A DNA stretch of 11,352 nucleotides from a virus (IMGVR_UViG_2585427742_000014); one strand, 5' to 3'. Numbered from the stretch's first letter, positions 1 to 11,352 are shown. Translations and numbers: made by a program. The notes: a model not told the origin generated them from the sequence alone.

Positions 1-147
1 ATGGCAAAGCCGATCATCACGCTCAATGGCCTAAAAATCGTCATTATGTTGGGAATGCTGGTCATTATTCTCTGCGGTATCCGTTTTGCCGCCGAGATCA
101 TCGTGCCGTTTATTCTCGCATTATTTATTGCTGTTATATATAACTAA
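1..147 (+). pseudogene. tqsA: 48-codon ORF at the window start; N-terminal fragment of an inner-membrane protein resembling the AI-2 exporter TqsA/YdgG family, apparently cut short at the island junction
   Basis: Own translation [48 protein letters not shown], hydrophobic and TM-like. From memory the first ~45 residues match E. coli TqsA, after which the frame diverges and stops. Unverified recall. Confidence 0.4.
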
Positions 148-211
148 TTTCACTTAACGCATTGATTTAATTAAATGATTTGCACTACAAAAAGTGCCAT
201 AAATCGCAAAA

Positions 212-233
212 TGACTACACCAGTGACTACACC
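212..233. repeat. Tandem direct repeat TGACTACACC x2 (212-221, 224-233); candidate integrase arm-type binding sites near the island end
   Basis: Exact 10-mer repeated with a 2-bp spacer, seen directly. Placement near the presumed att junction fits arm sites of P4-type integrases; function is inferred. Confidence 0.45.
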
Positions 234-342
234 GTTCGGTGCACTGTATGAAACAACGTGGAACAAATAGACACAAGAAATATACAGGCGGGTCATCTTT
301 CCAGGGGGAAGCGCGCTAATTCATGAGGGGCGTTAATGTTGA

Positions 343-358
343 TATGGGGATCCCCATA
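343..358. promoter_or_regulatory. Perfect 16-bp palindrome TATGGGGATCCCCATA; possible protein-binding site
   Basis: Seen directly; function unknown. Confidence 0.35.
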
Positions 359-552
359 ACGGGGCTACCGGATTTTTTTTCCGGTTAACTGTTAATCAGG
401 CTGGTGGGCTTTACCTGTTTTGTAGGAGTGGTCATTATGACCATTCAGACAATGACCTTAATCAGAACTTTTCGCTAAAAAATGACGTTGGTCACGTCGT
501 CCGGAAAGCACAAAATCCCGTCAATTTTTAATTAACGGTTAAACCGTCTTTT

Positions 553-603: not shown

Positions 604-885
604 TTAACGCCGTAACCGCTCCGGCTTCTTCCAGTGGTACGTAATTTTCTCCGTTTCCCGATACAGTGCCACGCGGCGATTGTAGGCCAGCATTTCAAGA
701 ACGCGGATCCGTATGTTGCGCATATCCACATCATTAAGCTGGATACCATCACGGCGCATCACCTCAGCAACCACACGCGCGTAATTTTCGGCGGTCACGC
801 TGTCCGGCTGCGTGGCCTGTTCGTCATGCTGCTGGCTGATTCCGGTAACGCGGCGGATTAATCCCAGTAGTTCGGCTTCTGTCAT
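604..885 (-). CDS. Hypothetical protein (~93 aa); credible distal part of the 159-aa ORF 604..1083
   Basis: Internal ATG at 885 preceded by a G-rich stretch. The upstream part of the long ORF runs across the cos site and is low-complexity (FCACPVHGKH...), so the start was trimmed. No family recognised. Confidence 0.4.
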   Translation of the reverse strand: MTEAELLGLIRRVTGISQQHDEQATQPDSVTAENYARVVAEVMRRDGIQLNDVDMRNIRIRVLEMLAYNRRVALYRETEKITYHWKKPERLRR

Positions 886-920: not shown

Positions 921-1100
921 GGTCCTTCCTGGAATTATGGCCCGTTACGGGGCGGCGACCTCGCGCGTTTTCACTATTTATGAAAATTTTTCGGGATCCA
1001 TGTCCGGTTTCTCTGCAAGTTAACCATATGAAAAATATAAAAACATGCTTTCCATGAACCGGACATGCGCAAAAAACAGACACTAAAACCGGACATCGAA
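921..1100 (+). other. cos-1: lambda-type cohesive-end site in plus orientation (cosQ-like flank, cosN 950-961 GGGCGGCGACCT, cosB-like region with three R-like elements and an AT-rich spacer)
   Basis: CGTTACG|GGGCGGCGACCT|CGCGCGTTTTCACTATTTATGAAAATTTTTCGG matches the phage lambda cos junction as I recall it (GGTTACG|GGGCGGCGACCT|CGCGGGTTTTCGCTATTTATGAAAATTTTCCGG). Downstream: ATGTCCGGTT at 1000-1009, AT-rich 1011-1050, AACCGGACAT at 1057-1066 and 1087-1096. Confidence 0.75.
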
Positions 1101-1164: not shown

Positions 1165-1599
1165 TTACTGTTCTGTATCGGCTGATTGCTCCATGCTGGC
1201 ACGGCGAACGCTTATGGCATGACGCCACCCAGCCAGAAAGCCAGCCATTTTATTTCGTGCCTTGCTCACATCTTCCGGTGAATAGCCGTAAATCTGCAAA
1301 CCTTCATCAAATCGATGTTCTGTTTCTTCACTGGAGTACTCGTCACGCTCAGATGAAAGCAGCCTGGCAAACATAATTTTTTCCAGCGCACTGGTTTCTA
1401 CGTGATATCTGATGGTCTCAAGACGGCTTTTACCTGAAGACCAAAGCAATGTATGCCCGATGTGATAACCGCCAGACTTTCCGCGATCCGCATTAAGATA
1501 CGGCATCCCCTGTTTGGTCCATGCGCGAATAGTGGTTCTGTTAACCTTGAAATGTTCAGCTATTTCCTGCTGACTTACAAAACAAGCTTTATCAATCAT
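1165..1599 (-). CDS. Nu1-like small-terminase DNA-binding protein with a divergent C-terminus; candidate packaging-redirection factor (Rpp-like) or island TerS
   Basis: N-terminus VSQQEIAEHFKVNRTTIRAWTKQGMPYL resembles the winged-HTH of lambda gpNu1 (KKQLADIFGASIRTIQNWQEQGMPVL, from memory). At 144 aa it is shorter than Nu1 and the C-terminal half is unrelated. A cos site lies ~90 bp upstream. Confidence 0.7.
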   Translation of the reverse strand: MIDKACFVSQQEIAEHFKVNRTTIRAWTKQGMPYLNADRGKSGGYHIGHTLLWSSGKSRLETIRYHVETSALEKIMFARLLSSERDEYSSEETEHRFDEGLQIYGYSPEDVSKARNKMAGFLAGWRHAISVRRASMEQSADTEQ

Positions 1600-1733
1600 A
1601 ATGTTACCTTAACTGCATGGTTAAATATTAATCAAGTGGTGGTGGTGTCACCTTCACGGAAAAACGTCATAAATAGCGAAAACCCGCGAGGTCGCCGCCC
1701 CGTAACGGGTCCATAATTCCAGGAAGGACCCGT
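1600..1733 (-). other. cos-2: lambda-type cos site in minus orientation (cosN at 1689-1700 as reverse complement), in the lambda-like position immediately upstream of the Nu1-like gene
   Basis: Minus strand reads ACGGGTCCTTCCTGGAATTATGGACCCGTTACG|GGGCGGCGACCT|CGCGGGTTTTCGCTATTTATGACGTTTTTCCGTGAAGG. The 22 nt after cosN are identical to lambda as recalled, and CGTTTTTCCGTG resembles lambda R3. Confidence 0.75.
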
Positions 1734-7924: not shown

Positions 7925-8382
7925 AAGCCTACCCCCTGACGAATACGGGCGACAAAAATCAGATGTGCGTGCGGCAGCTGTGCACGTGCTTCGCGCTCAG
8001 TGGCAGCGGTAACGGTGAATATTGCAATGCTGTCTGTCAGGCACTGCATAAAGCGCCAGACAAAATAAGGGCGTGCGGATACAGCCATGTGAAAGGCTCC
8101 CAGATGAATTTTAAGGAGTCTCGCTACTACGCTGTCAAACATGGTGGCGAGACGTAACAGGGTTGACAGACTGGTCATCTGGAAACCAGCGAGCACAAAG
8201 GCTCCCCCGTTACGCCCCGCCATAATGCGGGTATGGGTAGGTTTACGGACACAAAAAAACCGCTTATCGGATGTGGGCGGCTGTCCGCCAGATGTATTCA
8301 GGCTGTCAAACCCGGTCGCCATGTGGGCGACGGGGGAAGCATACAGCCCCGTGATAATTTTTTGCAAGCGGTTTTTACGCAT
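7921..8382 (-). CDS. Small protein, paralog 1, with a C-terminal motif shared with 8375..8578 (Icd-like/Ash-like small-protein type; start uncertain, alternative ATG at 8088)
   Basis: C-terminus YFVWRF...TAATEREARAQLPHAHLIFVARIRQG parallels the downstream paralog. The ATG at 8382 overlaps the upstream stop (ATGCGTAA) with AGGGG 7 nt upstream; the alternative ATG at 8088 has GGAG 8 nt upstream. Confidence 0.45.
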   Translation of the reverse strand: MRKNRLQKIITGLYASPVAHMATGFDSLNTSGGQPPTSDKRFFCVRKPTHTRIMAGRNGGAFVLAGFQMTSLSTLLRLATMFDSVVARLLKIHLGAFHMAVSARPYFVWRFMQCLTDSIAIFTVTAATEREARAQLPHAHLIFVARIRQGVGL

Positions 8383-9311: not shown

Positions 9312-9406
9312 TTGCATTGCCCACCAGCCTGATAACGGCTATCATCCCCGTGCTTATGTTTGGGATCACACACACAAACGGCGCAGCGGGTTATCTGTTC
9401 AGAAAG

Positions 9407-9580: not shown

Positions 9581-9850
9581 TTAATGAACTGCCTTGCAGC
9601 TATCCTTCCAGGCCAGAACCTCGGATAAAGACCAGCCAACGGAACGACCGCCAAGTTTACGACGTGATGGGAATTGTCCGGCCTTTTCCAGGCGGTAGCG
9701 ACACGTACGGCTAAGGCCGGTTAGTTTTTCGCATTCTTTTTCACGTATAAACCGATCAGTGCTTAACACTATTGCCCCCCTTTCGTTTCTTAAAGAGTCA
9801 TCAGGTGTCTTATTGTGTCGTATTGTTCCCGCTAGAGTGATGAATGGCAA
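9581..9850 (-). CDS. alpA: AlpA-family phage transcriptional regulator (MerR-like HTH)
   Basis: 89 aa; EKLTGLSRTCRYRLEKAGQFPSRRKLGGRSVGWSLSEVLAW matches the AlpA / CP4-57 regulatory protein signature as recalled; adjacent to the integrase. Confidence 0.85.
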   Translation of the reverse strand: MPFITLAGTIRHNKTPDDSLRNERGAIVLSTDRFIREKECEKLTGLSRTCRYRLEKAGQFPSRRKLGGRSVGWSLSEVLAWKDSCKAVH

Positions 9851-9920: not shown

Positions 9921-9951
9921 AAGGCATAAAATATTGTTCCATGCCTTTTTT
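9921..9951. terminator. Terminator-like hairpin (AAGGCAT / ATGCCTT stem, 13-nt loop, T-tract on the plus side) between int and alpA
   Basis: Seen directly. The T-tract is on the plus strand although the flanking genes are on the minus strand, so it may be a weak or bidirectional terminator for int, or a regulatory hairpin. Confidence 0.35.
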
Positions 9952-10040
9952 CTCGCTCTTTAAAGAGTGATTCGCTAGTGTACAAAAAACCAGTAACACA
10001 TTAAAAATCAGCTACTTATAAATCCGTACGCTTTTTCGCC

Positions 10041-10117
10041 TCTTGTTCGTAGTTGTTCCACATTGTTGCTCATTGTTGCACGTTGTATCTGTTCGCATAT
10101 CCAGTATGCGCATACTG
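10041..10117. promoter_or_regulatory. 10-bp phased TTGTT(G/C) repeats (10044-10097) followed by a perfect 16-bp palindrome CAGTATGCGCATACTG (10102-10117) at the int 3' flank
   Basis: CATTGTTGC repeated exactly at 10062 and 10072, with related copies at a 10-bp period; the palindrome was read directly. Confidence 0.45.
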
Positions 10118-10134: not shown

Positions 10135-11352
10135 TTATTTTCTTCTGGCTACGGGTAGCGTGGTTACGTTTTCATGTGTTCCCGCCAGTATCCCTAACCG
10201 CTCCGTCCACATATCCAGCGCATTGCGTTTCGCATCCAGATAACGGGAATGATTATAAACTCGCTGCATTCCTGGCATCTGGTGGCCTGTAAGCTGCTCC
10301 ACGACATGCGGATCAACGCCTAAATCGTTCAGCATGGTTGTAAAGGTGCGCCGGATGTCATGCAGTGACCAGTGAGGGTGATTAAGCCTCCTGTGCGCTA
10401 ATCTTCCATACTGCGATACGCTGGCCTCCTGTTTCACTTCCCCCAGCAATAAGCCCGTGTGCCTGTTCTGCTCCACCAGCTGCGTGACGAACGGCAGGAT
10501 CGCTTCCGGTATGGGCCGGAATATTGCGACCTTCGTTTTGCTGTGCTCCTTCGGAACGGTCCATAGCATTTCCGTAAAATCCCACTCCCCGATCTCCGAT
10601 AACCTCAGTTCTACCGTTCTGGCTCCGAAGACAATCAGGAGGCGGATTAACGCGACGTAGTAAGGGGAGAATATTTTTTTGTCCAGTGCCTGCAATAATT
10701 CGCCAAGTTCTTTGTTACTTAAGACACGTTCGCTTATATCCGGTTTTTTCCCAACGTCCGCCACGTTCAGATCGTCCAGAACGTTGCTGATTGCATAGCG
10801 CCGCCTACGGCAGAACTTAAGCGCCTGTTTGCACGCCTGTAGCACGAATCCGGCAGTAACAGGCGTTCGCTTTGCCACCTGGTCAAAACAGGCCAGCCAG
10901 TGCCGTAGCTCGCATTTATCCAGCGGCATAGCACCAATCTGCTGTATTACGTGATTATTAAGTCGCCTTTTCAGGGCGATATAATCCACGCGGTTTTCCT
11001 TTACGTAATACTCAAGCCAGTAGGTGAGCGCATCGCCAACCGTTACGGGCTTTAACGCTTCCTGTACGGTGTAATTCATCTCATGACGTGGATTTTTCCC
11101 CTCAGCCAGCCATGTGCGACACTGTGCGGCTTTTTCCCTGGCTGCTTTCAGGCTCAGATCAGGATAACTTCCCAGCTTAATGCGTTCGGGTCGTGTCTCC
11201 CTTCCCGTTCCGGCCCTGTATGTGAAATACCAGGTCAATTTCCCTGATGTTAAATATTTCACGCTCAGGTTTCCGCCATCACTATAAAACGTGTTTTTCT
11301 CCGCTGGCTTACCATGAAGTTTCCTTAGCAAGGTATCGCTCAGTTTGTTCAT
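10135..11352 (-). CDS. int: Tyrosine site-specific integrase, P4 / CP4-57 type
   Basis: 405 aa; N-terminal arm-binding-like region (LSDTLLRKLHGKPAEKNTFYSDGGNLSVKY), catalytic-region motifs HDIRRT and RVYNHS. The start codon sits at the window edge. Confidence 0.9.
   Translation of the reverse strand: MNKLSDTLLRKLHGKPAEKNTFYSDGGNLSVKYLTSGKLTWYFTYRAGTGRETRPERIKLGSYPDLSLKAAREKAAQCRTWLAEGKNPRHEMNYTVQEALKPVTVGDALTYWLEYYVKENRVDYIALKRRLNNHVIQQIGAMPLDKCELRHWLACFDQVAKRTPVTAGFVLQACKQALKFCRRRRYAISNVLDDLNVADVGKKPDISERVLSNKELGELLQALDKKIFSPYYVALIRLLIVFGARTVELRLSEIGEWDFTEMLWTVPKEHSKTKVAIFRPIPEAILPFVTQLVEQNRHTGLLLGEVKQEASVSQYGRLAHRRLNHPHWSLHDIRRTFTTMLNDLGVDPHVVEQLTGHQMPGMQRVYNHSRYLDAKRNALDMWTERLGILAGTHENVTTLPVARRK

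Follow-up and report, generated by a model that had tools for sequence, protein, structure and literature searches.

We found that the first bases of an 11,352-nucleotide stretch of viral DNA (IMGVR_UViG_2585427742_000014; hereafter the window, meaning the whole stretch that was analyzed) very probably represent the attL end of an integrated 11.4-kb phage-inducible chromosomal island (PICI) of the EcCI042/EcCICFT073 type inserted in tqsA, the gene for the E. coli AI-2 exporter, which the island enters 137 bp in. The attachment site as such is a rediscovery. EcCI042 (FN554766.1, 1832521-1843554, 11 kb) has been tabulated with the att core ATAACAGCA and the att gene tqsA, and EcCIK1516 with the same tqsA site (Table S1, PMC6092414, Fillol-Salom et al. 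2018, ISME J); the published EcCI042 core is the reverse complement of the 9-bp core, TGCTGTTAT, recovered here. Likewise, tqsA figures among the conserved genes disrupted by prophage integration (Bobay et al. 2013, PMC3603311) and among new regulated gene integrity candidates in a survey in which the elements concerned are of 11-16 kb (Mageeney et al. 2020, PMC7192596). Our additions are modest: the anatomy of attL and attP, which combines the arm geometry of helper-embedded PICIs with another motif, and a comparison of the tqsA and phoQ attachment cassettes. This attL anatomy, comprising a core, an IHF-consensus site and a doubled arm motif, has apparently not been spelled out before for the tqsA/phoQ islands.

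The junction was located by comparing genomes with and without the island. Positions 1-137 (plus strand) are the native 5' end of E. coli tqsA, that is, chromosomal DNA to the left of the island, and comprise codons 1-45 and two bases of codon 46; practically all of the 5,426 complete E. coli genomes contain them at 99-100% identity. In the great majority of these genomes, which are island-free, the match breaks off at base 137 within an annotated intact tqsA, placing the junction at 137/138; strain 8A, with a tqsA of 345 codons, is an example of such a site. In about 214 of the 5,426 genomes at least 80% of positions 1-400 is covered, which indicates that an island is present at this point. 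The first-pass annotation had proposed a left integration junction about 135 bp into a tqsA-like gene, reading the ORF at 1..147 as the start of a TqsA-like protein, and these proposals are borne out, the insertion point to within 2 bp. The comparison with island-free genomes that it had suggested recovered both the empty site and the shared 9-bp core, with a native gene of 345 rather than 48 codons, and the other junction, together with the remainder of tqsA, was found where it had advised looking, just beyond the window end at 11352.

The 48-codon ORF at 1..147 (plus strand), open from its ATG to its TAA, is hence a truncated tqsA pseudogene, in which residues 1-46 are those of native TqsA and Y47, N48 and the stop are furnished by island DNA. 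In RefSeq it is labeled as a [quoted passage not shown], and both tqsA halves at the island-carrying locus are annotated as pseudogene fragments. The whole window is identical to strain 300033 (NZ_CM128588.1) except at three positions, 6650, 7270 and 8672, at all of which the window has a G and the strain record an A. In this strain the 3' part of tqsA lies beyond the integrase gene, 11.4 kb from the 5' part, and is followed by pntB and pntA; the core-to-core distance is 11,411 bp (locus L003, 3129 to 14540). The 9-bp identity block TGCTGTTAT, at 129..137 (plus strand), is common to attL (…TTATTTAT TGCTGTTAT ATATAACTAA…), attR (…TGATAAAA TGCTGTTAT TCTTAACCCG…) and attB (…TTATTTAT TGCTGTTAT TCTTAACCCG…), and the predicted attP includes …TGATAAAATGCTGTTATATATAAC…. 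When the left part of attL and the right part of attR are joined in silico, the two tqsA halves meet in frame in a 1,035-nt ORF coding for a 345-aa TqsA that is identical to the reference at 344 of 345 residues. We encountered no evidence contradicting the junction.

The arrangement has two hallmarks of regulated gene integrity: the insertion interrupts a conserved coding sequence without a functional replacement, and precise excision brings back the intact tqsA ORF, the latter in silico only. In attR, two in-frame stops, TGA TAA, stand before the core and ahead of the native frame; thus, the island brings no replacement for the TqsA N-terminus. By inspection the first 45 TqsA residues are hydrophobic and thus probably membrane-spanning, and the insertion cuts them off from the rest of the protein. 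Based on this separation, the in-frame stops and the missing 5' replacement, we infer that TqsA is inactivated while the island is resident. As for the kind of target, the 3' end of a tRNA or tmRNA gene, whose end is then replaced by the element, is typical but not obligatory, and here the target is instead tqsA codons 43-46. The first-pass annotation was right in ascribing the island to a P4-type integrase, as an Arm-DNA-bind_3 domain is present, but overstated the case in considering a non-tRNA site unusual for such an enzyme, since PICI integrases routinely use them: the Gram-negative PICIs insert in protein-coding and intergenic sites, tqsA included, and many non-tRNA sites have been tabulated (PMC6092414).

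The integrase itself is a 409-aa tyrosine recombinase encoded on the minus strand at 10135..11364 (within the window up to 11352), with its annotated start 12 nt past the window end. It combines an N-terminal arm-DNA-binding domain (Arm-DNA-bind_3, PF13356, E = 1.4e-18) with a recombinase catalytic domain (Phage_integrase, PF00589, E = 2.9e-16), as is characteristic of heterobivalent tyrosine integrases; a match to PF22022 is weak, and candidate catalytic residues are recognizable by inspection in the motifs GARTVEL, HDIRRT and RVYNHSRY. Among the integrases of the phage collection none exceeds 50% identity to this protein, and those of the Stx phages reach about 30%. In P4 and lambda, attP carries arm repeats on both sides of a short core and is acted on by a heterobivalent tyrosine integrase. 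The tqsA island shares with these systems the pairing of PF13356 with the catalytic domain, an IHF-type site between arm and core, and a gene for an AlpA/Vis-type helix-turn-helix (HTH) protein beside int; it differs from them in having an identity block of 9 bp and in targeting the protein-coding tqsA, as opposed to a tRNA gene (P4) or an intergenic site (lambda).

The P' arm in attL features a doubled arm-type motif, TGACTACACC-AG-TGACTACACC, at 212..233 (plus strand), with exact copies at 212-221 and 224-233. The first-pass annotation had marked it as a tandem repeat and a candidate att arm element; its coordinates stand, and the arm role gains support from a copy in attR and from the spacing, but the AG spacer gives the doublet a period of 12, so that it is not strictly head-to-tail. 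Exact 10-mer pairs at this spacing turn up in about 6% of simulated windows; hence, the doublet is only marginal when taken alone and owes its significance to a second TGACTACACC doublet of the same orientation, which the attR arm carries at L003 14390-14411, 26 bp ahead of the int start. Both doublets fall within a 76-nt direct repeat, D1 (208..283, plus strand, in attL), whose copies in the two att arms are 76% identical. In the reconstructed attP the doublets fall at +79..+100 and -154..-133 from the core centre; arm-type repeats thereby flank the core on both sides, as expected for a heterobivalent integrase, and the doublet is almost certainly an integrase arm-type site, presumably bound by the N-terminal arm domain.

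This geometry closely parallels that of the helper-embedded PICIs, in which a doubled motif, TGTATTGC, lies at 81 +/- 2 and 132 +/- 2 bp about the attP centre and has been proposed to bind either integrase arm domains or AlpA (Mageeney et al. 2023, NAR Genom Bioinform, PMC10111431). The helper-embedded PICIs (11capE) and the tqsA island both have a doubled motif of 8-10 nt in two co-oriented copies, at 81/132 bp there and 79/133 bp here, and in both the target gene is split with no replacement sequence and restored only by excision. They differ in the motif, TGTATTGC as opposed to TGACTACACC, and in the target, a helper late gene as opposed to a chromosomal one. A related island in E. coli E41 (L007 2300-3145) interrupts a prophage portal gene and is hence itself a helper-embedded PICI; it shares with the window the block at 328-444. 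The published GCAATACA doublet is present in it, some 70 bp inward of the point at which the annotation ends the split portal gene, a position that fits the helper-embedded PICI spacing.

Doublets of the broader motif family ACTACACC also occur in islands at the phoQ, smrA and fis sites. When species-representative genomes were scanned for the doubled motif, 39 matches were obtained, mostly chance occurrences in unrelated phyla, the relevant ones being only those in Shigella flexneri (phoQ site, both arms) and Phytobacter (fis site); among 50,697 phage records there was no meaningful match that would point to a phage origin of the P' arm. We also observed that the published “att core” of EcCIDI14, CGGTGTAGTTAATGGTGTAGTTAATT (Table S1, PMC6092414), is the reverse complement of the phoQ-type doubled arm motif ATTAACTACACCATTAACTACACCG (L004 15222-15246), and that the doubled TTTGTAGTTATACG “core” of the yejM-site islands looks alike; these entries may thus be arm repeats rather than crossover cores. 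Within the 76-nt block are further short motifs, GAAACAA (250-256) and GTGGAACAA (258-266), both on the plus strand, which are candidate AlpA/excisionase motifs. GTGGAACAA-like motifs cluster in both att arms (250-266; L003 14436-14454) and in the int-alpA intergenic region, as GAAACAA motifs do, and motifs of the GAAACAA/GTGGAACAA type are possible sites for AlpA or another island regulator. In the interval between the int stop and alpA we noted repeats of about 10 bp ending in AACAA on the minus strand (GTGCAACAA, GAGCAACAA, GTGGAACAA and ACGAACAA), at 10040-10090 and 9934-9942.

Between the core and the arm sites, adjoining an A/T-rich tract, an IHF consensus site, AATCAATGCGTTA (matching WATCAANNNNTTR), is found on the minus strand at 155..167. 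No other exact match occurs in the 17-kb locus, where chance alone would give 0.88; as a single match is at chance level, only position and conservation argue for the site. Four islands of the tqsA and phoQ types retain it, at +26 or +29 bp relative to the core and with differing degenerate bases, and its arrangement suggests that IHF would bind there. Two perfect 12-bp palindromes lie close by, one of them, GTTATATATAAC, created at the junction in attL and attP (133-144), and the other, ATTTAATTAAAT, in the A/T-rich tract beside the IHF site (165-176). With regard to the crossover, a half-site, a 7-bp overlap and a second half-site form the classic arrangement. The phoQ-type attP displays a perfect inverted repeat of this form at the crossover, TGATAAAA-TATGTCC-TTTTATCA, with 8 bp around a 7-bp spacer, and alignment with it yields TGATAAAA-TGCTGTT-ATATATAA(C) for the tqsA type. 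From this alignment the 7-bp strand-exchange overlap is predicted to be TGCTGTT at 129-135; its exact position is a model, because the right half-site of the tqsA type matches the left at only 5/8 positions.

Hence, we propose the following scheme, in which the binding, cleavage and bending steps are read from the sequence. The island's heterobivalent tyrosine integrase recombined attP with the attB in tqsA codons 43-46, and strand exchange would have taken place in TGCTGTT between A/T-rich half-sites, TGATAAAA on the int side and ATATATAAC on the window side. The N-terminal arm domain of the integrase would occupy the TGACTACACC doublets at 212-233 and in the attR arm by the int start, with IHF bending the DNA at 155-167 such that arm meets core, as in the lambda attP. 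AlpA would probably give directionality to excision.

Further insight comes from the relatives of the island. The EcCI042/EcCIK1516 islands have the same tqsA site, 9-bp core, size of about 11 kb and gene order, and the first ~620 bases of the window are 100% identical in strain 042; the 042 island differs in carrying a RepA-type helicase where the window encodes a 584-aa D5-type primase, and in some small genes, which is ordinary mosaic variation. The EcCICFT073 type, by contrast, is a PICI at ycfD(roxA)-phoQ with the core GGACATATTT, and the phoQ/ycfD-type island of strain GN02050 has the core AAATATGTCC. Nevertheless, the integrase of the GN02050 island is 92% identical to that of the window and its att arms are nearly identical, and the EcCICFT073 type shares the ACTACACC doublets, the IHF position, the palindrome block discussed below and the capsid, decoration and cos modules. 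When the attP sequences of the tqsA and phoQ/ycfD types are aligned (loci L003 and L004), only a cassette of about 30 bp differs (130..159, plus strand), comprising the greater part of the overlap together with the right core half-site, ATATATAAC, and flank. This difference at the crossover goes with an intergenic target in the EcCICFT073 type and an intragenic one in the tqsA type; moreover, the phoQ-type attP has the perfect TGATAAAA/TTTTATCA inverted repeat, of which the tqsA type keeps the left half-site only. We tentatively suggest, at less than even confidence, that the two types are a natural retargeting pair, which came to use unrelated sites when an attP cassette of ~30 bp (overlap and right core half-site) was swapped and the left half-site TGATAAAA kept. 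If true, the choice of target in this integrase clade would be set mainly by overlap identity together with a few substitutions in the core-binding domain, and the pair would offer a compact system for mapping the determinants of specificity.

Farther into the island, the first-pass annotation had pointed to a palindrome and a hairpin as candidate att or regulatory elements. Both exist: a perfect 16-bp palindrome, TATGGGGATCCCCATA, which contains GATC, lies at 343..358, and a weak hairpin, ACCGG-ATTTTTTTT-CCGGT with an A(T)8 loop, at 367..385. The roles suggested for them, be it as the operator of an island regulator, as a bidirectional terminator or an insulator that would stop read-through coming from tqsA's promoter, or as a distal Int/AlpA site, are unlikely in our assessment, even though some observations speak in their favor. 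The surrounding non-coding block (~290-415) shows 86-93% conservation among islands that use other att sites, one of them with variable flanks, in the prophage portal gene, and perfect 16-bp palindromes number two in the window against 0.2 expected per window by simulation. However, while the palindrome sequence is conserved in 6/6 related islands, its symmetry is broken in two of these, and in a third, that of PV15, a 7-bp deletion takes its last two bases and the next five. The hairpin is of a kind expected by chance (108 hairpins with 5-bp stems in the window against 83 +/- 11 simulated), and its stem is lost in the GN02050 and E41 relatives, in which the T-run and CCGGTTAA are conserved. 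Furthermore, the two elements are 210-250 bp away from the core and fall outside the span that the arm doublet sets in the published attP geometry. RNA folding of 286-420 on both strands was no better than that of shuffled sequences (z = -0.8 and -0.9), and neither a terminator pattern nor a promoter or Rfam match was found on the palindrome or hairpin. A small ORF of 21 aa (323-388) running across both was also considered and rejected, since 1-nt and 7-nt indels in the relatives shift its frame. Given the broken symmetry, the lost stem, the folding scores and the missing terminator, promoter and Rfam matches, the palindrome is better regarded as conserved sequence than as an att or RNA element, and the hairpin as most likely incidental. 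A second perfect 16-bp palindrome, CAGTATGCGCATACTG, is seen at 10102-10117, just 3' of the integrase stop and ahead of an A-rich run, and may act as a terminator or operator in the int-alpA interval.

The same conserved block contains a Chi octamer, GCTGGTGG, at 400..407 (plus strand), one of nine in the 11.35 kb against 0.33 expected from composition. The others are at 2711(-), 4598(-), 5898(-), 6159(+), 7018(+), 8459(+), 9321(-) and 10473(-). The islands of 042 and GN02050 have 11 and 9, respectively, as compared with two in ~29 kb of flanking chromosome, a local enrichment of roughly ten-fold that involves both orientations. Lambdoid phages are split between those with many Chi sites and those with an anti-RecBCD gene (PMC8791490), and the enrichment in the island fits this split; we found no description of Chi enrichment in PICIs in the literature. 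Separately, a 15-nt inverted repeat, ATCAGGCTGGTGGGC (395-409 and 9319-9333), was considered as an sRNA/target pair and rejected: the similarity does not extend any further, and what the two copies have in common is a Chi site.

Beyond its att sites, the element is recognizable as a PICI by its gene content, which is the EcCICFT073/EcCI042 gene set. It falls in the range of ~8-12 kb, is bounded, at a specific place in the chromosome, by direct repeats of a short att core, and has int and alpA at one end, all but one of the remaining annotated genes being on the minus strand. The alpA gene (9581..9769, minus strand) encodes an AlpA/Vis-type HTH protein (PF05930, E = 5e-17), and AlpA is known as the PICI activator (PMC6092414); here it probably also serves as the excision directionality factor. 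The island has its own replication module, with a D5_N/DUF5906 primase (D5-type, 584 aa) and an SSB, and no full virion or lysis gene set; its sole structural genes code for homologues of the lambda E-like major capsid and D-like decoration proteins, as described for EcCICFT073. Annotation and Pfam matches add Icd-like genes and a small HTH protein. The lambda cohesive-end sequence GGGCGGCGACCT is present at 950-961(+) and 1689-1700(-), as befits a PICI of the cos type (the EcCICFT073 cos sequences are given in the supplement of PMC6092414), and the island is a satellite of lambda-like cos phages. The two GGGCGGCGACCT cohesive ends are inverted, lie in a 78-nt inverted repeat (I1) and flank a 144-aa HTH ORF, 1165-1599(-), which is possibly the packaging-redirection gene of this PICI type.

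At the end next to attL, the last island gene (604-885, minus strand) is followed on its 3' side by two terminator-like hairpins (484..538, up to 547, minus strand), which mark the end of the leftward transcription unit of the island. The scan of 1-1300 gave an additional terminator-like hairpin at 991-1007, and no promoter-like sites were found in this range. Also 3' of this last gene, at 551-597, are five tightly spaced GTCAC/GTCGC repeats (ttGTCACggcgtGTCACtggttGTCACtctccGTCACggtatGTCGC), which occur in the smrA-site relative as well. An Rfam scan of the whole window detected no structured RNA in 1-620, the only real matches being a C4 antisense RNA in the Icd-like region at 8140-8227(-) (72.6 bits, E = 6e-14) and its a1/b1 target element at 8295-8344(-); this pair is a P1/P4-style RNA immunity module.

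One may ask whether the junction, genuine as it is, belongs to a fixed, non-excisable remnant, such that tqsA would be permanently inactive and the att-arm motifs mere relics. Some of the Icd-like genes are indeed annotated as decayed pseudogene fragments, so that this copy may no longer be mobile, and the presence of the island in only ~4% of genomes could partly reflect vertical inheritance. We nonetheless hold this to be improbable: the ORFs for the integrase and AlpA are intact, their products give significant domain matches, and the two cores, the two arm doublets and the IHF site are likewise undamaged. Moreover, island variants that clearly differ from one another share this junction, among them one that carries a terminase in O157:H7 PV15-279, which points to repeated site-specific integration. 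The converse notion that the 48-codon ORF is a genuine small gene, with no insertion at all, has nothing to commend it other than an open frame from ATG to TAA and is already refuted by the island-free genomes, in which the same 137 bases run into the 345-codon tqsA, and by the in-frame joining of the two halves, each a RefSeq pseudogene fragment.

Thus, with the window start read as the attL end of a tqsA-borne PICI, tqsA would be inactivated by this satellite family in ~4% of complete E. coli genomes, and excision would restore it. The split gene is a regulated gene integrity candidate of the kind already flagged in the literature, and the anatomy of attL could help both in correcting att-site assignments and in studying the change of target in this integrase clade. 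Finally, it is conceivable that the tqsA insertion could serve as a helper-phage-triggered switch for AI-2 export.
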